Shown here piece by piece: positions 4,439 to 31,003 of a DNA stretch of 31,003 bases (position 1 is the stretch's first letter; every line of letters begins with the position of its first letter). Location of the stretch: the IMG/VR virus record IMGVR_UViG_3300011335_000701, positions 1 through 31,003 of that record. One strand, written 5' to 3'. This DNA comes from a virus. Lineage: Duplodnaviria; Caudoviricetes. The notes beneath the pieces are model-generated. The model was not told where the DNA came from, made no database searches, and was given only the letters and a program-made list of their open reading frames with translations. A program made the position numbers and the translations under genes.

Positions 4439-5491
4439 ATGACTACGCGCAACGCTATCGACATCGGTGACCAGCTAGCACAGATTGCAACAGATGACGC
4501 TTGTACTGCTCTTAAACAGGTAGCGGACTCGCTGGCTGACGGCGGCATACTTACGCTAAATGTGCCAAACATCGAGCATTTTACGCGGAAGTACGGCGAA
4601 GGCGCGCCAGATTGTGAAAACTACCTGCTTGGCGGCGGCAAGTATAAAAGCGTTTGGAACCGCGAGAAGCTCAGCGTAACGCTTAACGCGGCAGGGTTTG
4701 AAGTGCTAGGCGGTGCAGACGGCCGTACTAGCTGGATTGATGACGCGGGGCGGTTTGCCATCCGCGCGCGCAAGTGCAGCAGACCAGCACCACCTCGGCC
4801 GTTGTCTGAGGTTCACGCAATCATGTCTATGCCGCGCGTAGCGTGGACTGACACTATGGGAGAACTAAGCGAAGCCGCTGCAACGCTTGGGATAAACACC
4901 TCACGGGCGCAGGGCGTTTTTTGGGGTCAGTGCCTAGAGCGGCTTATGGAACAGGCGCAACTGAACGACGCTATCAAATATGTTTTGACGGTTGACTACG
5001 ACTCGATTTTTAACGCCTCGGATATTGTGCGCCTCTGGCAAGTCATGGAAACTAACCCCGATATCGACGCGCTCTGTCCGTTGCAGATTGGGCGAGAGCG
5101 CGACTGTGTCATTTTTAGCCTTGCCGACAAGGCGGGGCAGCTGCTAAAAGAAACGCCGTTAGACACTTTTCATCGGGACGCGGTTGATATGTTTACGGGT
5201 CACTTTGGCCTAACCCTTATCCGTACCTCTGCGCTCAGGAAAATGAAATCCCCTCTTTTCCTCGGCGTTCCAAACGCTGACGGAAGGTGGGGAGAAGGGC
5301 GCACCGATGACGATATACACTTCTGGAACAACCTCCGCGAGTCTGGCGGCAGAATTTGCGTCTGCCCTAAGGTGCGAATCGGTCACTTGCAGGCCATGAT
5401 TACATGGCCTGACGAAATGATGAAAGCCAAGCACCAGTACCTAACGCAGTATCACGCAGACGGGAGGCCTGACGAGTGCATGACCTTCTAA
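4439..5491 (+). CDS. GT-A fold (GT2-like) glycosyltransferase with degenerate N-terminal methyltransferase-like segment
   Basis: VLTVDYDSIF (DxD), DDDIHFW and VRIGHL motifs. N-terminal LADGGILTLNVPN...LNAAGF resembles the C-half of class I methyltransferases. Confidence 0.75.
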   Translation: MTTRNAIDIGDQLAQIATDDACTALKQVADSLADGGILTLNVPNIEHFTRKYGEGAPDCENYLLGGGKYKSVWNREKLSVTLNAAGFEVLGGADGRTSWIDDAGRFAIRARKCSRPAPPRPLSEVHAIMSMPRVAWTDTMGELSEAAATLGINTSRAQGVFWGQCLERLMEQAQLNDAIKYVLTVDYDSIFNASDIVRLWQVMETNPDIDALCPLQIGRERDCVIFSLADKAGQLLKETPLDTFHRDAVDMFTGHFGLTLIRTSALRKMKSPLFLGVPNADGRWGEGRTDDDIHFWNNLRESGGRICVCPKVRIGHLQAMITWPDEMMKAKHQYLTQYHADGRPDECMTF

Positions 5492-15280: not shown

Positions 15281-15373
15281 ATGATGCAAGATATTGTAGC
15301 GCAATTGGTTCAATTGGCCGCCGTGGCCGCACCGCTCGCAATTTTTCAAATATGGGGGAATGATGACAACTGA
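15281..15373 (+). CDS. 30-aa hydrophobic peptide (not in ORF track)
   Basis: TAAGGAG RBS; MMQDIVAQLVQLAAVAAPLAIFQIWGNDDN*; overlaps the bet start. Confidence 0.5.
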   Translation: MMQDIVAQLVQLAAVAAPLAIFQIWGNDDN

Positions 15374-16391
15374 CCTAGCTCTAATTCGCTTGGATGCGGA
15401 GAAAATATCGTTGATCGCGCGGACAATCGCCAAGGGCTGCACCCCTGATGAGTTGCAGCTATTCGTAGCAATCGCTGACCGCACAGGCCTTGACCCGTTC
15501 GCTCGGCAGATTTTTGCGGTCAAGCGTTGGGACAGTCGCGAGAACGGCTATGTAATGCAAACGCAGGTATCTATTGATGGCGCGCGGCTCACCGCTCAGA
15601 GGAGCGGAGAGTACGCAGGCCAGACCACTACTACATGGTGCGGAGCCGACGGGGTTTGGTTGGATGTATGGCTTAGTGACTCGCACCCGTTAGCCGCGCG
15701 CGTCGGGGTCTATCGGCGCGGCTTCGCGGAGCCGCTGGTAGCCATTGCGCTATGGCGCGAGTACTGCCCCTGCACAAAGGACGGCAAGCCTACAGGGCAA
15801 TGGCCGAGGATGCCCGCGCTGATGCTGGCAAAATGCGCCGAGTCTCTGGCACTGCGTAAGGCTTTTCCCGCCGAGCTGTCAGGCATTTACACCGCTGAGG
15901 AAATGGAACAGAGCAGCAGGCACGAGCCGCAACCAGTGCCAGCACCCGTACAGGTTCTAGCGATATCTACGCGGTTACCTGTAGAAACCCCTAGAGAAGA
16001 GCAGGCGGTAGCCGTGCCTGTGCCGATTGCGGCAATACCAACAGCGAAGAAAATGACCAAGGCAGAGCGAGCCGCCGATACGCTACGGGTGCTGGCTCCT
16101 GTTGCGGAGCTGGCGGTAGTCGATACCGACGCGCAAGCTAAAAAGGATTGGCCGATGGAAGAGTTTACGCTGCTTGCGAGTACTAGCCCCGCCATTGTTG
16201 TGAACGGCAAAGGTCGAAAAGTTTGGCGCGTCGATCAAGACAATATAGACACTCCGCTAGCTATCCTCGATAGCACAATTGCGGCAAACATCGAAGCAAA
16301 TCAGGCTTTCGGGCTGAAGTCGCGCATCGTTACCGAGCGCGTTGGCGCAAAGCGAGTAGTAGTAGCCATACTTGAGGAGTTGCCGATATGA
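15360..16391 (+). CDS. bet: Phage recombination protein Bet (RecT/Redbeta family ssDNA annealase)
   Basis: GLDPFARQIFAVKR, QVSIDGARLTAQRSG, MLAKCAESLALRKAFP and GIYTAEEM. Confidence 0.93.
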   Translation: MMTTDLALIRLDAEKISLIARTIAKGCTPDELQLFVAIADRTGLDPFARQIFAVKRWDSRENGYVMQTQVSIDGARLTAQRSGEYAGQTTTTWCGADGVWLDVWLSDSHPLAARVGVYRRGFAEPLVAIALWREYCPCTKDGKPTGQWPRMPALMLAKCAESLALRKAFPAELSGIYTAEEMEQSSRHEPQPVPAPVQVLAISTRLPVETPREEQAVAVPVPIAAIPTAKKMTKAERAADTLRVLAPVAELAVVDTDAQAKKDWPMEEFTLLASTSPAIVVNGKGRKVWRVDQDNIDTPLAILDSTIAANIEANQAFGLKSRIVTERVGAKRVVVAILEELPI

Positions 16392-19129: not shown

Positions 19130-19540
19130 ATGATCAATGCTGACCCCGTTCGACAATCAATCTATGACCGCGCATATGACGCGGCGTACAGTGCGGCCGA
19201 AATTGCGGCCTACCGCGTTGCCTATGAGAAGCTTTCCGACGCGGCCGCTGCATCGGCTATCGCCGTTGTTGCCGCCAGCCAAGCCGCTGGCGAAGCCATG
19301 CGCCGCGCGCGCCTGAGCTTTGATGAGAACGGAAAGGCAGTATCGGTTACTCTGAGCCTCTCCGAGGCTATTGCGACCGCTCACGCTGTTGTAGGAGCCG
19401 TTGTGAACCTTGACCGCGACATAGAGGAGCGCGAGGAAATCGGCCGCGTAGGCGGCCTCCAAGAGCTTCGCGAAGTTGCCGCGCGACTTGACCGCCTTTC
19501 CTCCGCTTTGCTGGTTGCAGCGCATCAGGGGGCAAAATGA
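19130..19540 (+). CDS. Ala-rich hypothetical protein
   Basis: ATG 19130 follows the hairpin copy at 19100-19113. Confidence 0.6.
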   Translation: MINADPVRQSIYDRAYDAAYSAAEIAAYRVAYEKLSDAAAASAIAVVAASQAAGEAMRRARLSFDENGKAVSVTLSLSEAIATAHAVVGAVVNLDRDIEEREEIGRVGGLQELREVAARLDRLSSALLVAAHQGAK

Positions 19541-20061
19541 GCCGTAGCCTGTTTCATATCTCGGAGGACATGGGCGCGCTAGACGCGCTTCTATCCGAGG
19601 CCAACGGGGATGTATCTGCGCCAGAGACTCAGGCCGCGCTAGAGACTTGGGAGGCCGAGCTGGAGACTGACCTGCTCGGCAAAGTCGATGCGTACTGTGG
19701 ACTGATTACCGAAATGGAAGCGCGCATCTGGACGCGCACCGTGGAAGCTCGGCGGCTAAAGGAGTTGGCCGAGTCTGACCAACGAGCAGTAGACGCGCTG
19801 CGCGACCGATTGCGCGCTGTCTGGCTGGCTCGCAATCTCGGCAAGCTTCAATGCCCGCGCTTTGTGGTTTCCGTTGTAAAGAACGGCGGCAAGCTGCCGC
19901 TACTGGTAACTGACTCGGCCGACAACCTGCCACGGTGGGCGGTCAAAACCGTAAACACTGTATCGGTGGACAACGACGCAATCCGCGCGCGGATTGACGC
20001 TGGCGAGGTGCTGAGCTTCGCGCAGCTCGGCGAGCGCGGCGTAAGGCTGTCGATCAAATGA
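19537..20061 (+). CDS. Siphovirus Gp157-family protein
   Basis: SLFHIS, KVDAYCGLI, EARRLKEL, KNGGKLPL and ERGVRLSIK patterns. Confidence 0.8.
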   Translation: MSRSLFHISEDMGALDALLSEANGDVSAPETQAALETWEAELETDLLGKVDAYCGLITEMEARIWTRTVEARRLKELAESDQRAVDALRDRLRAVWLARNLGKLQCPRFVVSVVKNGGKLPLLVTDSADNLPRWAVKTVNTVSVDNDAIRARIDAGEVLSFAQLGERGVRLSIK

Positions 20062-25173: not shown

Positions 25174-25833
25174 ATGATCGACACAAGCGCGCCCGTAGCA
25201 TTTAGATCGCAAGCAGGCCAAGACCTTTTTGCGCTGGCTGCCCTACGCGGCAAACGCCACGGCCTTTTCGTGGACATTGGCGCAGGCCATCCCGAGCATA
25301 TCTCTAACACGGTAATGCTTGAGCGGGACTACGGGTGGTCTGGCATCCTGTGCGACATTGCAACCGAAGCAGAACTACGCGCGGTGCGCTCACCAGACAA
25401 CACAGTCTACGGGGATGCCTTTGAGGTAAACTGGCTTAAGGCAATAAGCGGGCTACCACTGCAAGCGCAGCGCGTAGACTACCTCAGCCTAGACCTAGAG
25501 CCGCCGCTGTTGACGCTGTGCGCTTTGTGCTTAGTGCCGCTTGACGCTGTACGATTTAGCGTCATTACCATAGAGCATGACAGCTACCGTGGCGCAGAAT
25601 GTGCAGTGATGGCTGAGGCAATGCGGGCGATACTGCTAAACAGAGGCTACCTGTTAGTCGCAAGGGATGTACAGGTACTAGCACCAAACGGAAAGCTTAG
25701 AGCCTTTGAGGATTGGTGGCTTGACGGTGACTTCTTTACCGCTGCTGAAATTGCTACGGCAACACAGGCAGCAGACCAAATACGGGCGGTGTTTCTAGCC
25801 GAGTGGACTAAGGCTACAGCCGCTGCTAGCTAG
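25174..25833 (+). CDS. FkbM-family (Methyltransf_21-like) SAM methyltransferase
   Basis: SQAGQD, FVDIGA, SNT..LE..GWSG, VDYLSLDLE, ITIEH and EDWW. Confidence 0.82.
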   Translation: MIDTSAPVAFRSQAGQDLFALAALRGKRHGLFVDIGAGHPEHISNTVMLERDYGWSGILCDIATEAELRAVRSPDNTVYGDAFEVNWLKAISGLPLQAQRVDYLSLDLEPPLLTLCALCLVPLDAVRFSVITIEHDSYRGAECAVMAEAMRAILLNRGYLLVARDVQVLAPNGKLRAFEDWWLDGDFFTAAEIATATQAADQIRAVFLAEWTKATAAAS

Positions 25834-25882: not shown

Positions 25883-26197
25883 ATGGCTTTACCAAAACTG
25901 TTGAACGATGCCCGACCGCCGCGCCAGACGATGCAAATGCTGTCTATGGCTATTGCTAACGGCTGGCAGATACCTGACTCAGTAATGAGAGCCGCACCCG
26001 CAGTAGTTGCTAACCTGCTAGTCAACGGCACTGACCGCGAAAAACTCCGAGCTGCCGAGGTGCTTATTCGTATGCGTGAATCAAATATCAACGGGCTAGA
26101 GGTGGCTGATAGATTGGAACGCCTTGATAGTGGCGAGGCCACGGAGCGCGTTGAGTTTGCGCCTATTGTATTGAGGAGCCGCGCTGCCAATGACTGA
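25883..26197 (+). CDS. terS: Putative terminase small subunit
   Basis: Helical 104 aa with ERLDSGEATERVE C-terminus; upstream of TerL. Confidence 0.5.
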   Translation: MALPKLLNDARPPRQTMQMLSMAIANGWQIPDSVMRAAPAVVANLLVNGTDREKLRAAEVLIRMRESNINGLEVADRLERLDSGEATERVEFAPIVLRSRAAND

Positions 26198-26783
26198 CCC
26201 CGCAATCCTCTGCGCGTACAGCAAGCTGGTAGCACCTGCTAAGCTCAAGCCTCACCCGCGCAACCCAAACAAACACAGTGAAAACCAAGTATCGGTAATC
26301 GCAAAGGCTATCGTAGAATCAGGCTGGCGGCATCCTGTCATAGTCAGCAAGCGGAGCGGGCTGATAGTTGCAGGTCACGGCCGAGTTATGGCGGCAATCT
26401 ACGCAGGAATCAAAAGCGTACCCGTAGAAATCCAAGACTTTGAAACCGACGCGGCGGAGCTGGCGTTCCTTGTGGCCGACAATCGCCTATCGGCTCTCTC
26501 TGATCTAGACGATGTTGCCATATCGGAAATCCTAGAGACACTGACCCAACTAGGCGCGAGCGTTTCATCCGCAGGCTACGACCAGTCTGCGCTTATCGAA
26601 ATGGTTAACGAAATTGAAGCGAAGGAACGCCGCGCAGTCGAGCGCGAGCAGGCCGCGCAGCAACGCCAAGAGCCAGCAGCAACAGCAACCGCAGGCAACG
26701 GCGAGCCGACGCAACGCCCTGAGTTTATCCCTGTTGGCAGCGTGACTACGCGCGCGCCGTGCAAGTACTGCGGGCGGCCTTGA
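26190..26783 (+). CDS. ParB/Srx N-terminal domain protein
   Basis: LKPHPRNPNKH, GWRHPVIV, IVAGHGRVMAA and LVADNRL; C-terminal CKYCG. Confidence 0.88.
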   Translation: MTDPAILCAYSKLVAPAKLKPHPRNPNKHSENQVSVIAKAIVESGWRHPVIVSKRSGLIVAGHGRVMAAIYAGIKSVPVEIQDFETDAAELAFLVADNRLSALSDLDDVAISEILETLTQLGASVSSAGYDQSALIEMVNEIEAKERRAVEREQAAQQRQEPAATATAGNGEPTQRPEFIPVGSVTTRAPCKYCGRP

Positions 26784-27514
26784 TGTCAGCAGTTAAAAAG
26801 ACGCGCGAAAGCCCGTACCAAATTGCTTGGCGGCTCAAGCGTATGGGGTATAGCAAGGTAAAGCTAGACTTTTCGGGCGGTAAGGAATCTTCAGCGTGCT
26901 GGCTTGCGCTACAGGCGGAAGGGGTGCAGGTTGTGCCAATGATGGCCGTACCCTACCCGCACCTAGAAGTAACTCGGCAAGTGAACGGCTACTTTGAAGA
27001 CTACTTTAGGTGCAAGGTGTACACCTACCCTATGTCCCGTTGGTATCGGTGCTGGAGGGACTTGCTCTACCTAGATCCGTACCTAGTGCGAGTCGCGGAA
27101 ACGCTTAAAATCAAGGAACGCCCAAGCGCAGACCGCATCGTGCGGATACACAGCGCGCTAGCAGGCTTGCCCGATGGACATATGACGGTAGCAGGCCTAC
27201 GCGCATCGGATAGCCGCCAGCGGTTTCTATCTATCTACAAGCACGGCGTAATTGCGGAGGGTAATCTACGGTGCTACCCTGTTGCATGGTGCAATGAGTC
27301 TGCTATCTACTCTATGCTGATTCATCACGGGCTAAAACTACCGTCGCTGTACAAAGACCTGCACCAGAGCTTTGATGTCCCACGGGCAAAAATCCTAGAC
27401 TGGCTTCAAATTAACCTGCCCGAAGACTACCAGCGCATCCTCGCATTCTCTCCGCTCATCCGTCTTGAGCAGGAACGCTACCGCATAGGAGGATCAAATT
27501 GCAGCATCCGCTAG
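26783..27514 (+). CDS. PAPS-reductase-like PP-loop protein
   Basis: FSGGKES PP-loop, GLRASDSRQR, YPVAW, LPSLY...SFD and EDYQRIL..PL. Confidence 0.75.
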   Translation: MSAVKKTRESPYQIAWRLKRMGYSKVKLDFSGGKESSACWLALQAEGVQVVPMMAVPYPHLEVTRQVNGYFEDYFRCKVYTYPMSRWYRCWRDLLYLDPYLVRVAETLKIKERPSADRIVRIHSALAGLPDGHMTVAGLRASDSRQRFLSIYKHGVIAEGNLRCYPVAWCNESAIYSMLIHHGLKLPSLYKDLHQSFDVPRAKILDWLQINLPEDYQRILAFSPLIRLEQERYRIGGSNCSIR

Positions 27515-27900
27515 ACGATATTGTGCCGCTACTGCCTGAGATTGCCGACAACGCTAACTTTGACCAGCGCGCGGCTAGCGCGGCTATGCTTGCGCTTGCC
27601 GCGCAAAGGGTTAGCATTTCAAGCGATGAAGGCTTTTACACCGTCATAGTGTTTCAGACCAAGCCACAGCTCCAAGAGTTTTTGCACCGCACAGGGTGGG
27701 AACTAGAGCATGACGGCTACTGGATTGACGGCTTTAAGCTTGCGGACAAATTAGGCATAGACATTAAACCGATAGACCCCGAAGTAATGCAGCGGGTCTA
27801 TGACCGAGTCAAGACCACAAAACAGGAAACCGACGCGATAGCGAGAGGCTTGGAGTTTTTCCCTATCGAGTCACTACAACGAAAGAAGAAGAAAAAATGA
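27499..27900 (+). CDS. Small cassette-associated protein
   Basis: AGGAGG + TTG; FYTVIVFQTKPQLQEFL...WIDG..LA..LGI. Confidence 0.65.
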   Translation: MQHPLDDIVPLLPEIADNANFDQRAASAAMLALAAQRVSISSDEGFYTVIVFQTKPQLQEFLHRTGWELEHDGYWIDGFKLADKLGIDIKPIDPEVMQRVYDRVKTTKQETDAIARGLEFFPIESLQRKKKKK

Positions 27901-27980
27901 ATACTTTCTCTACCCGTACTTTTGTCATGGAAAACCCTGACGCACCGCCAGCAACCAGCACAGGCGGCCGAGGCGGCTAA
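27897..27980 (+). CDS. 27-aa peptide MNTFSTRTFVMENPDAPPATSTGGRGG (not in ORF track)
   Basis: ATGA overlap with the upstream stop; TAA 27978-27980. Confidence 0.5.
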   Translation: MNTFSTRTFVMENPDAPPATSTGGRGG

Positions 27981-28011
27981 CTCTATCTCAGCGACAACGA
28001 CGCGCGCGCGG

Positions 28012-29193
28012 TTGGAACTTCCGCCGATGTATCCTAAACAGTACGCGGCGGTCTGTGACCCCGCGCGCATCGTTGTTATTGAGGCCGCGACAAAGGCAGG
28101 CAAAACCGTAGGCTGCCTTATGTGGCTCCTGTCGCGAGCGTGGAACGGCGGCAAGGGAGAGTACTGGTGGATTGCTCCTACCTTCGCGCAATCTACAATG
28201 GCCTTTAACCGTATGGTTGATTGGCTACAGCAAGGCGACCCCGCTAAGCACGCTTGGGATGTAAACCTATCCGTAGTGCGGATACGACTTAGCAACGGGG
28301 CGAACATCTGGTTTAAGAGCGCAGACAACGCGGACAGCCTGTACGGCGAGGATGTGCAATCCGCAGTAATTGACGAGGCTACGCGGTGCAGTGAAGCCAG
28401 CTGGTACGCCATCCGCTCAACGCTAACCGCTACCCGTGGAAAGCTTCGCATCATTGGCAATGTGCGCGGGCGCAAAAATTGGGCGTTTGCGCTGGCGCGC
28501 CGTGCAGAAGCGGGCGAGCGCGACATGGCGTATTTTAAGTTGACCGCATACGACGCAGTCGAAGGCGGAGTAGTAGACGCGCAGGAAATCGAAGACGCAA
28601 AGCGGGTACTACCCGAGGCCATTTTTCGCGAGCTGTACCTAGCAGAGCCATCAGACGATGGCGGAAACCCGTTCGGAATCAAGGCTATAGCCGAATGTGT
28701 CGCTCCTCTCTCTCCTCTGCCCGTTGTCTGTTGGGGCGTGGATCTAGCTAAGAGCCGAGACTGGACAGTAGCAGTAGGCCTAGACACTGACGGCAAGGTA
28801 TGCCAGCTTGAGCGGTGGCAGGGTGCTTGGTCAGTTACTCGCGAGCGGCTCGCGCGCATGATTAAGGACACGCCAGCACAGATAGATTCTACTGGTGTCG
28901 GTGACCCTATCGTAGAAGACCTTCGCAAAGTTTGCGCTCGGGCTGAAGGCTTCCGATTCTCTAGTCAGTCAAAACAACAGTTGATGGAAGGCCTCCAAAT
29001 TGCCATATCTACCAAGGAAATACGGTTCCCTGACGGTTGGCTACGGGTTGAACTTGAGTCGTTTGGCTTCCGATACTCACAGAAGGCTATACAGTATGAG
29101 GCGACGGTAGGCCATGATGACGGGGTATGCGCGCTCGCGCTTGCCGTTCATGCTCGACGGCAAAGGCATCCCTTCATTATCCGAGTCTTCTAA
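28012..29193 (+). CDS. terL: Terminase large subunit
   Basis: AATKAGKT Walker A, WWIAPT, VIDEA Walker B, WGVDLA, IDSTGVG and HDDGVCALAL; start uncertain (TTG 28012 or ATG 28027). Confidence 0.92.
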   Translation: MELPPMYPKQYAAVCDPARIVVIEAATKAGKTVGCLMWLLSRAWNGGKGEYWWIAPTFAQSTMAFNRMVDWLQQGDPAKHAWDVNLSVVRIRLSNGANIWFKSADNADSLYGEDVQSAVIDEATRCSEASWYAIRSTLTATRGKLRIIGNVRGRKNWAFALARRAEAGERDMAYFKLTAYDAVEGGVVDAQEIEDAKRVLPEAIFRELYLAEPSDDGGNPFGIKAIAECVAPLSPLPVVCWGVDLAKSRDWTVAVGLDTDGKVCQLERWQGAWSVTRERLARMIKDTPAQIDSTGVGDPIVEDLRKVCARAEGFRFSSQSKQQLMEGLQIAISTKEIRFPDGWLRVELESFGFRYSQKAIQYEATVGHDDGVCALALAVHARRQRHPFIIRVF

Positions 29194-31003
29194 ATGTCGA
29201 TACTTGCACGAATTAAATCAGCCTTTTCTAGCCAGCCTTTCCTACAAGCCAGCGCGCGACTGCTACGCGGCAACGAGTCAATCCGCCCTACCTTTAGTCA
29301 TCACCAAGCGGTGAGCTATTACAGCAGCTGGATCTACGCAGCCGCTAACCTCAACGCCGTAGCAGTAGCCTCGCAACCCTTGCGCCTGTATGTCCGCAAC
29401 CGAAGCGCAGGCACTAAGCTTTGGGACACGCGCAAAGCTCCGCACCAAACCAAGGCCTACCTAAGCGGCTCGCTGGCTCACTGCCCGTCGCGCTACGCCA
29501 TGACTAAAGCCGCAGAGTACGGCGACGATTACGAGGTAGTAACTGAGGCGCACCCGTTACTTACTTTGCTCTCAAAAGTGAACCCCTATCAAAACGGATT
29601 TGACGCGACAGTGCTGCGCGTTCTGTACGGCGAGCTAACGGGAAACGCCTACATTCATCCTGTAATGGATCAGCGGCTACGGCGGCCTGTTGCGCTCTGG
29701 ACTATGCCGAGCCAGTATGTGGAAATTGTGCCAGACAAAGAGCAGTTTATTAGCGGCTACTTGTACGGCACTAGCCGCGACCAGCGGCACAAGTTCGCGG
29801 CCGATGAAGTCATCCACTTTAAGCGGCCTAACCCGTCTGACCTGTACTACGGCCTTGGCAAGGTAGAGGCGGCTTGGGGCGCGGCTACTTCTAACGCTGC
29901 CGTGCATGATATGGACTACCACTTTTTCGCAAATAAGGCGCGCCCTGATTACCTTATGACGGTTAAGAGCCATGCAACCCCTGAGGAGCTGGACAGGCTA
30001 GAGGCGCAGATTGACGAGAAGCTACGCGGCAGCAAGCGCACGGGTAGGTTCCTTACTAGCACTGCTGAAATCGACATAAAGCCTTTGTCTTTTCCGCCTA
30101 AAGACCTTGCAGGACGCGAGCAAATCGTAGAGGAAATCGCAGCAGTGTTTGGCGTACCTGTGTCTATGCTTAAGGCCAACGATCCAAACCTAGCCAGCGC
30201 AACGGTAGGGTTTACATCTTGGAAGGCAACGATGGTGCTACCTCTCCTGAGGATGGATGAGGAAACGCTAAATCAGGGTCTGCTGCCGTTGTTTGGTATT
30301 GAGGAAGACGCTTTTCTTTGCTATGACAACCCCGTAGCCGAAGACAAAGTTTTTGCGCTAGATAGGGTGCGCTCGCTAGTGATGAGTGGGCTGATGACCA
30401 CTAACGAAGGCCGCGAGCTGCAAGGGCTACCGCGCGTCAAAGATAGACAGGCCGACAGGCTGCTGGTAAACGGTCAGCCGCTAGGCGGCTTTCCCCCTGC
30501 CGCTCCTGCGGCAGCAGCTCCGCTAGTGCCTACCCCGTTACCCCTTGCCGACTCTCTAGCCTCCTCTCTGCGCTTGATTGATGCCGCTATGGACACAAAG
30601 GCCGCAACTAGTTGCGACTGCGTAGCAAAAAAAAACTACCCTGAGCCTGAGGAAGTAGTCTGGACTGATGAGACGAACGAGGAAAGCCCCTCGGTAATTA
30701 TGAAGGCGGTAAACACGCAACCGCCGCAAAGCGTTGCGGATAATGCACGGCGCGCGCTTGAGGTGCGAGCGGAAAAACCTGAGTCACTGCGCGGCATGAC
30801 AGCCGTAGGAATCGCGCGAGCGCGTGACCTAATGAACCGCCAGCAGCTTTCAGAGGACACTATCCGCCGAATGCTTTCCTTTTTTGAACGCCACGAAGTA
30901 GACAAACAAGGCGCGACTTGGGAAGAGCAGGGCAAGGGCTGGCAGGCTTGGCACGGTTGGGGCGGCGACGAAGGCTTTTCGTGGGCGCGTCGGAAAGTTG
31001 ACG
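29194..31003 (+). CDS. HK97-family portal protein, open to the window end and fused to 3-1316
   Basis: Translated by hand with no stop; HPLLTLL..NPYQ, LTGNAY, EVIHFK.PNP..YG, EIAAVFGVP and TTNEGR. Confidence 0.92.
   Translation, partial: MSILARIKSAFSSQPFLQASARLLRGNESIRPTFSHHQAVSYYSSWIYAAANLNAVAVASQPLRLYVRNRSAGTKLWDTRKAPHQTKAYLSGSLAHCPSRYAMTKAAEYGDDYEVVTEAHPLLTLLSKVNPYQNGFDATVLRVLYGELTGNAYIHPVMDQRLRRPVALWTMPSQYVEIVPDKEQFISGYLYGTSRDQRHKFAADEVIHFKRPNPSDLYYGLGKVEAAWGAATSNAAVHDMDYHFFANKARPDYLMTVKSHATPEELDRLEAQIDEKLRGSKRTGRFLTSTAEIDIKPLSFPPKDLAGREQIVEEIAAVFGVPVSMLKANDPNLASATVGFTSWKATMVLPLLRMDEETLNQGLLPLFGIEEDAFLCYDNPVAEDKVFALDRVRSLVMSGLMTTNEGRELQGLPRVKDRQADRLLVNGQPLGGFPPAAPAAAAPLVPTPLPLADSLASSLRLIDAAMDTKAATSCDCVAKKNYPEPEEVVWTDETNEESPSVIMKAVNTQPPQSVADNARRALEVRAEKPESLRGMTAVGIARARDLMNRQQLSEDTIRRMLSFFERHEVDKQGATWEEQGKGWQAWHGWGGDEGFSWARRKVD
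30728..31003. repeat. Terminal direct repeat / circular overlap, copy 2
   Basis: Matches 1-276 with 3 mismatches. Confidence 0.95.

Follow-up and report, generated by a model that had tools for sequence, protein, structure and literature searches.

A PP-loop enzyme, an adaptor domain and a tailed small protein in phage packaging operons: a candidate system for C-terminal peptide transfer

Introduction

What might a PAPS-reductase-like enzyme, a ParB-like protein and a peptide of 27 residues be doing directly in front of the large terminase subunit (TerL) of a tailed phage? The question is raised by the virus record IMGVR_UViG_3300011335_000701 (Caudoviricetes), of which all 31,003 nt, hereafter the window, were analyzed (estimated completeness 98%). 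A sequence-only reading had described four overlapping genes before TerL, the last encoding a peptide ending in GGRGG, and had suggested that they may form a packaging-coupled DNA- or protein-modification system. All four open reading frames (ORFs) were recovered on the + strand with the overlaps described, at the positions given in Table 1.

PP-loop enzymes adenylate a carboxylate or a carbonyl, and a nucleophile then displaces AMP. The four genes of the window appear to be one form of a widespread phage late-operon module, which consists of a PP-loop enzyme, an adaptor domain, a ParB N-terminal (ParB-N) domain and a tailed small protein. The enzyme would activate the tailed peptide by ATP-dependent adenylation of its free C-terminal carboxylate, and the activated peptide would be passed on to an acceptor around packaging, with the phage DNA as the most likely one. 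The adaptor would be an obligate subunit, and ParB-N an optional part for DNA loading or activation. For C-terminal adenylation of the peptide followed by its transfer to phage DNA, the sequence evidence described below suggests a probability of roughly 0.45.

Results

An adaptor domain accompanies the enzyme

Direct searches with the window enzyme returned no viral locus and a single near-identical protein. Among representatives at 50% identity, 339 relatives were found at E ≤ 0.001, the best 150 of which were listed, and 92 of those were aligned with the window protein (93 sequences). The enzyme was present in 237 of 238 loci, which formed 66 clusters at 80% identity, and metagenome loci added 13 more. 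A hidden Markov model (HMM) of the 133-aa partner, seeded by 31 of the 66 clusters with the window left out, had a match adjoining or fused to the enzyme in 66/66 clusters and in 8 of the 13 added ones (74/79 in total). Four of the five misses come from loci that end no more than 400 nt past the enzyme, L243 showing the partner cut off; the fifth, L255, has 842 nt behind the enzyme and no match to the partner HMM. Fusions of enzyme and partner were seen in L068 and L081 by HMM and in P0007, P0074, P0083, P0108 and P0120 by eye. When 7999 candidates of 294-2000 aa were screened for longer, fused proteins, none was found; the screen is a weak one, as fusions are known otherwise.

Within a search set of about 20 proteins, to which the following E values belong, the partner HMM matched the C-terminal domain of the LR1 'nuclease' (residues 156-242, E 3.8e-7), the ParB-like gp55 of Bacteroides phage BS-TP2 (residues 164-259, E 7.7e-6) and the second 'ParB-like' half-gene of JNU_P7, gp53 (E 3.2e-9), and weakly L312 (E 0.12). 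The first half of phrog_9353 was matched by the window ParB (residues 17-163 of the family, E 1.1e-14) and the second half by the partners of L008 and L163, two of the five partners tested. These matches show homology between the 133-aa partner and the C-terminal domain present in ParB-like proteins of a sister branch, which joins the two branches in one module. Its constant third part, as judged from the same homology, is an adaptor domain. In one branch it is fused to ParB-N; in the other it is a protein of its own or a fusion partner of the enzyme. The window ParB matched several ParB-like PHROGs, ends in a single CxxC and is without the C-terminal domain found in the other ParB-like proteins of the module.

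As for the pairing of ParB with a PAPS-reductase-like enzyme, mentioned in the sequence-only reading, a ParB gene was found directly before the enzyme in the window and in L163 (own HMM, 79 clusters, 61 of them with 1 kb upstream) and also in L090 (Pfam on 51 upstream ORFs). A separate ParB gene next to the enzyme is rare in this branch (3/79 clusters), and no partner is as constant as the 133-aa protein. L163 has the gene order of the window, namely ParB (ending in one CxxC), enzyme, partner and peptide, and its peptide shows a hydrophobic first half and Gly-Arg repeats. The locus L312 (2477-4693) has a single ParB-like gene with an enzyme paralogue on either side; upstream lie an ASCH-like gene (by eye) and an Arg-rich ORF of 74 aa whose end is RRG.

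When the window partner was compared with that of a related strain, 18 of the 19 listed differences fell at third codon positions, a pattern by which the gene is under purifying selection. No Pfam, PHROG or NCBIfam family and no solved relative by sequence were found for the partner, its fold matches were limited to single helices, and its Atlas matches were unnamed and below 0.9. Single-helix matches were likewise the only outcome when its model (predicted local distance difference test, pLDDT, 73; predicted TM score, pTM, 0.43) was checked for a PqqD-like recognition element (RRE) of ribosomally synthesized and post-translationally modified peptides (RiPPs). The predicted complex of the L027 enzyme with partner, ATP and peptide, a stand-in for the window, whose peptide has fewer than 30 residues, gave a score of 0.07 and a mark of 0.32, values that weigh neither for nor against such a complex.

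A portable tail on small basic proteins

The space behind the partner was surveyed wherever it extended for at least 300 nt, which gave 71 clusters, the window being left out. A basic ORF of 20-70 aa, rich in G, S, A and T and picked without a tail motif, was found in 63/71 clusters; the short Gly/Arg-rich downstream ORF anticipated from the window is conserved in homologous cassettes. These peptides had a median length of 36 residues and a median charge of +0.23 per residue, and 46/63 had a Shine-Dalgarno match. At the last five positions, where the selection of S/G-rich ORFs favors the tail letters, R was present in 34, S in 36, S in 39, G in 33 and S or T in 47 (27 and 20) of the 63. Gly-Gly, earlier regarded as the defining end, found no support as such: the nearest large branch ends in R-S-S-G-[S/T], and a single peptide, that of L072 (TSGSRGG), ends in Gly-Gly (1/63).

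Because the tail pattern was drawn from these loci and the choice of ORFs favors S and G, it is the comparison of positions that carries weight. An ORF with the strict tail lay within 450 nt of the partner in 34/71 clusters, compared to 1/258 downstream control windows; it was found on the opposite strand in 0/71 and somewhere in the locus in 44/71.

The locus L038 (5225-6397), from an enzyme cluster of 71 loci, carries four ORFs of different families, 27-135 aa long, all of which end in RSSGS. Two tandem tailed peptides each were found in L071, L093, L095 and Pasteurella phage Pm86, where both (L001:5134-5238, 5251-5349) are unannotated, basic, end in RSSGS and lie between the partner and the small terminase subunit (TerS); displaced tailed peptides were found in L023, L058, L067, L089 and L236. 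One family of basic proteins of 135-141 aa bears three different tails, RSSGS in L038, STGSRGG in JNU_P7 and GKSSG in LR1 (L038 versus JNU_P7, E 9.5e-38), and a second JNU_P7 protein ends in STGSKGG. The tail is conserved and portable between proteins, and it is probably the substrate of the enzyme. The group activated would be the alpha-carboxylate, not a side chain, because a conserved and portable small-residue C-terminus ends in S, T or G depending on the branch.

The 27-codon ORF of the window and the start of TerL

Is the 27-codon ORF of the window a gene of this family? Gly-Gly ends alone are not rare, occurring at 16 of the 2527 six-frame stops of the window. The end G[SG][RK]GG, a motif chosen after the tails of JNU_P7 and L072 were known, occurred at 1/2527 window stops, that of the 27-aa ORF, and at 0/14124 stops of 45 control loci. 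The tail STGGRGG resembles STGSRGG and STGSKGG of JNU_P7 and TSGSRGG of L072, and no other family-tail ORF was found in the near-complete genome save one minus-strand match.

The related strain keeps the start, length, stop and last six residues of the ORF, and no stop arises in it. Positions 27840-27901 and 27963-27981 are unchanged, and three changes fall in 27982-27987. Outside the gapped block there are 10 substitutions, of which, counted by hand in the peptide frame, 3 are silent, and three fall in one codon; in the TerL frame, the same comparison gave no silent substitution. The divergence was confirmed by P0168, in which the first 21 residues of the TerL extension from 27922 diverge.

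The open frame of TerL extends back to TTG 27922, and a start there, seen earlier as a possible objection to the peptide, would place 55 residues before the ATPase motif, more than in any of the 94 homologues matched among 120 listed. Of these, 81 have 28-36 residues (starts as set by the gene callers), and ATC 27985 gives 34. The related strain has ATT in place of ATC 27985 and CTT in place of TTG 28012, and its changes further on are silent. Because of these N-terminal lengths and codon changes, TerL likely starts at ATC 27985, not at 27922. Six of the 94 homologues were called at a later Met, which hints at missed non-AUG starts in the clade.

The ORF could also be a decayed remnant, or a translational bridge which carries ribosomes to the weak non-AUG start of TerL, the enzyme being independent or decaying. 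Its stop lies 4 nt before ATC 27985, its tail codons contain GAGG, codons 2-22 diverge fast, basic residues are limited to two Arg, and the PP-loop of the window is an SGGKE variant. This is countered by the match to the GG-type tails of JNU_P7 and L072 with the stop counts given above, by the lack of other family-tail ORFs in the genome and by the purifying selection on the partner gene. We rate a remnant or bridge as having a small chance, and the window peptide is probably made.

The cassette in the packaging operon

In 53/59 clusters, TerL was the first long ORF after the partner, and these TerL proteins belonged to several unrelated PHROG families, in agreement with the packaging coupling that had been proposed. 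Neither enzyme nor partner was found in any of 45 loci with a window-like TerL. Because TerL of unrelated families follows the partner while window-like TerL loci lack both genes, the cassette is, from its gene neighborhoods, a mobile late-operon cassette which is not tied to the TerL lineage of the window. Its supposed place between TerS and TerL was borne out on the TerL side; on the other side, the 104-aa protein matched TerS weakly (Table 1) and had no homologue in the fetched relative loci.

Among the neighbors recurring in at least three clusters (top 30 groups, by eye), no protease, transporter, E1 or desulfurase was found. A class I glutamine amidotransferase and a recurring 268-aa neighbor were observed 1-2.5 kb upstream of the enzyme in L036, L088, L097 and L241. 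The amidotransferase was considered as an amine donor for L036 and set aside, as it was present in four loci only and on the opposite strand in three.

Fold and motifs of the enzyme

The window enzyme carries the motif SGGKES and scored 18 bits against Pfam PAPS_reduct, below the cut-off of 22.5; the phrog_2302 HMM, which it matched (Table 1), also matched the enzymes of LR1, JNU_P7 and BS-TP2 (E ≤ 4e-29). The AF2 model of the enzyme (pLDDT 93) was nearest, in a VIA comparison, to FAD synthase (8rom, Z 13.8, root-mean-square deviation 2.8, 155 aligned) and CysD (1zun, Z 13.1), then to APS/PAPS reductases (Z 12.9-11.8), with TilS, GMP synthetase, LarE and Cap9 lower (9nto, Z 10.4). The top Foldseek matches included TtuA-TtuB, and TilS, TtuA and GMP synthetase were among the top fold matches. 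The motifs S-x-G-K-D (PP-loop), D-S-x-x-R and G-R-S-F-D-G were conserved in the family. In the 93 aligned enzymes, no column exceeded 27% Cys, and 0/93 carried a motif of the [ER]CG[LI]H type (ECGLH-like), the catalytic cysteine end of CysH. In a quick tree of 86 enzymes (arbitrary root, long branches), the window fell in a group of 8 with L163 (SH-aLRT 96), a group with the ParB-fused phages on one side and the main branch on the other. In protein P0070, the enzyme is fused to a C-terminal segment that, by eye, resembles an HNH endonuclease. In Gordonia phage VanLee, a long repeat of 9-nt type, read as (RAT)n or (VAL)n depending on the strand, lies just upstream of the enzyme (L005:3556-3858).

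These features bear on three other functions. The enzyme could adenylate DNA, at a base carbonyl as TilS or on the backbone in the manner of DndC, with the peptide as nucleophile or non-covalent regulator. The matches to TilS, TtuA and GMP synthetase and the ParB and TerL context are consistent with such chemistry; the conserved part is the very C-terminus, the last side chain of which varies (S, T or G), and this fits carboxylate activation better, which makes adenylation of DNA improbable. In a sulfur relay, the peptide would be a ThiS/TtuB-like thiocarboxylate carrier and the enzyme would thiolate DNA, as might be suggested by the RGG end of the window peptide and by TtuA-TtuB as a top Foldseek match. 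A ThiS/MoaD/TtuB-type carrier, the analogy drawn in the sequence-only reading, is unlikely because the enzyme has no conserved Cys. The relay is further opposed by the near absence of Gly-Gly ends from the family, by a peptide too short for a beta-grasp fold and by the lack of a recurring E1 or desulfurase, and it appears still less probable than adenylation of DNA. DndC, for comparison, has a conserved cysteine dyad according to PMC10853773.

The third function, that of a true CysH (PAPS reductase) encoded by an auxiliary metabolic gene (AMG), would agree with the Pfam and PHROG labels. PMC13369170 and 10.64898/2026.02.18.706556 read phage PAPS reductases, which may be of another family, as metabolic genes, with no assay in the accessible portions of their text. 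The absent catalytic end, the obligate partner with its tailed peptide and the position in a packaging operon leave this function very improbable for the enzyme described here.

Genome setting

The window also encodes head genes and RecT, Gam-like and RusA genes (Table 1). A portal gene exits at the right end (29194-31003), and the left end starts within a portal/head-morphogenesis frame (1-1316); because the portal gene is split over both ends, the record probably represents a permuted genome that is near-complete. The sequencing runs with at least half of the region were riverine metagenomes or bore a coded organism label, and no RNA run was among the listed runs that carry it. The window shows strong restriction-site avoidance: CCGG was counted 0 times compared to 289 expected (both strands) and ACGT 0 compared to 167, and CCNGG, GGNCC and several 6-mers, such as TGCGCA, AGCGCT, CCGCGG, GAGCTC and CTGCAG, are likewise lacking. 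GGA/TCC shows no such purge, GGA being counted 620 times with 661 expected.

Table 1. Positions in the window of the cassette genes, of TerL and of other features.
Position	Strand	Feature	Evidence or remark
25883..26197	+	104-aa protein, possible terminase small subunit (weak)	phrog_74 TerS E 0.059; DUF5681 cluster lead, score 0.88
26190..26783	+	ParB N-terminal (ParB/Srx-like) protein, 197 aa	Pfam ParB_N E 8.4e-6
26783..27514	+	PP-loop (AANH) enzyme, PAPS-reductase/FAD-synthase/CysD fold, 243 aa from ATG	phrog_2302 E 3.5e-12
27499..27900	+	133-aa partner ('adaptor'), TTG start behind AGGAGG	partner HMM E 1.7e-8
27897..27980	+	27-aa tailed peptide ending in STGGRGG, ATGA overlap at start	place of the family's peptide gene
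27970..27973	+	GAGG within the tail codons of the peptide, probable TerL ribosome site	11 nt before ATC 27985
27985..29193	+	terminase large subunit, likely non-AUG start ATC 27985	PHROG TerL E 1.9e-30
25174-25833		FkbM-like methyltransferase	weak match, E 0.17
19537-20061		Mu Gam-like end-protection protein	
15360-16391		RecT-like annealing protein	

Discussion

The acceptor of the peptide

Among the conceivable acceptors, DNA appears the likeliest, for three reasons. The tailed proteins are mostly protamine-like, in the sister branch the adaptor lies within the ParB-like protein, and ParB activates a DNA-modifying enzyme elsewhere. That enzyme is a phage one, belonging to the ParB-dependent T-dioxygenases (PMC13229309), and PMC4738411 predicts that ParB-TerL loci modify the DNA while it is being packaged.

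With the tail activated likewise, the acceptor could be a protein or a small amine, as in the tagging of virion or host proteins, amidation, cyclization or a RiPP-like route. ParB-N is missing in most of the branch of the window, the window peptide is not basic, and Cap9, a QueC-like PP-loop enzyme that was among the structural matches, modifies a protein terminus (10.1101/2025.04.06.647259). On the other hand, most family peptides are strongly basic, the adaptor belongs to a ParB-like protein in the sister branch, and neither a protease nor a transporter recurs among the neighbors. Transfer to protein or amine is an unlikely outcome, with a somewhat better chance than the remnant or bridge.

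Several observations weigh against adenylation of the tail and its transfer to DNA. The known enzymes of the nearest fold, to our knowledge, act on small molecules, and the rarity of ParB beside the enzyme weakens DNA as the acceptor. The window peptide has a net charge of 0, with two Arg only, and no Shine-Dalgarno site. Positions 27902-27962 (61 nt, codons 2-22) have 13 substitutions and net-zero gaps in the related strain, whose contigs, from three runs and two studies, amount to effectively one comparison pair, and the unchanged tail codons overlap GAGG and were possibly kept for TerL initiation. The PP-loop of the window has E where the family has D (2/93), so activity here could be altered. 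In the family, the strict tail is missing from the whole locus in 27/71 clusters, several peptides end otherwise (L036, L005, L163, L254), and the strict tail, drawn from these same loci, also matches shadow frames in 10/45 TerL control loci.

Transfer of the activated tail to phage DNA is still the reading we prefer. In a more specific form, a C-terminal ligase of the PAPS-reductase fold would read a short portable tail (RSSG[S/T] or ..RGG) and staple mostly protamine-like proteins to phage DNA during packaging; this form is more tentative than the general one.

Comparison with known systems

Lactobacillus phages LR1 and JNU_P7 and Bacteroides phage BS-TP2 carry a 'PAPS reductase' and a 'ParB-like nuclease' before terminase, as IbrA/IbrB-like gene pairs. 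They share with the window a homologous enzyme, ParB-N, the same C-terminal domain, small proteins with small-residue tails, basic in these phages, and the position before TerL. Their adaptor forms one protein with ParB-N, or a split directly behind ParB-N separates the two, and their tailed genes adjoin the enzyme, whereas in the window ParB-N and adaptor are separate genes flanking the enzyme and a non-basic peptide follows the adaptor. Gordonia phages Cafasso, Morgana and VanLee, Pasteurella phage Pm86, Bifidobacterium phage BigBern1 and Cutibacterium phage CA1NRNZ have the same enzyme family (25-29% identity) and the same partner, annotated as a 'PAPS reductase-like domain protein' and two hypothetical genes, with a short R/G/S/A-rich ORF nearby. 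Unlike the window, they have no adjacent ParB, and their peptides are basic with SSGS-like or divergent tails. The window itself has the phrog_2302-type enzyme, the adaptor, the small-residue-tailed ORF and the place before TerL, and its peptide differs in not being basic.

MccB-MccA also carries out ATP-dependent chemistry at the C-terminus of a small protein, and TtuA-type enzymes carry Fe-S-binding cysteines. TtuA-TtuB and the ThiF/E1 enzymes with ubiquitin-like carriers resemble the proposed system in that ATP drives a reaction at or with a small protein's C-terminal end, and in the RGG end of the window peptide. The window differs from them in having no beta-grasp carrier (27 residues), no Fe-S or catalytic Cys and no E1 fold, and most tails of its family end in S or T. 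The fold is also common to CysH and DndC, the catalytic cysteines of which are absent in the window family. As in ParB-Tls loci and ParB-dependent T-dioxygenases, a ParB N-terminal domain stands in the window beside a candidate modifying enzyme near TerL (PMC4738411 and PMC13229309); the window differs in that its enzyme has the PP-loop ATPase fold, not that of a methylase or dioxygenase, and in the tailed peptide gene that belongs to the unit. Cap9 of type IV cyclic-oligonucleotide-based antiphage signaling systems (CBASS) shares a PP-loop enzyme acting on a protein terminus, but joins a nucleobase to an N-terminus (10.1101/2025.04.06.647259), whereas the window family conserves the C-terminus and its fold is nearer to FAD synthase and CysD.

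Significance

The homology joining the two branches, the exchange of tails on one protein family and the split, non-basic variant of the window are new here. No functional description of the three-part system or of its chemistry was found in the openly accessible literature searched. An enzyme family without a catalytic cysteine, with a near-obligate partner and a tailed peptide in a packaging operon, puts the sulfur-metabolism reading in question, and the tailed peptide genes are often missed by gene callers, as the two in Pm86 were. The anatomy of the module suggests a substrate (the tail), a minimal enzyme (enzyme and adaptor) and cultured phages to work with (Gordonia Cafasso and Morgana, Lactobacillus LR1 and JNU_P7), which reduces the annotation question to a simple assay. 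If the chemistry holds, the enzyme would be a peptide C-terminal ligase of a fold unknown for that job, with a tag of five to seven residues. If proteins are indeed stapled to DNA, this would be protein-to-DNA tagging unrelated to the E1/ubiquitin enzymes; such tagging would shield or condense the phage genome and account for many phage genes that are at present listed as sulfur-metabolism AMGs.

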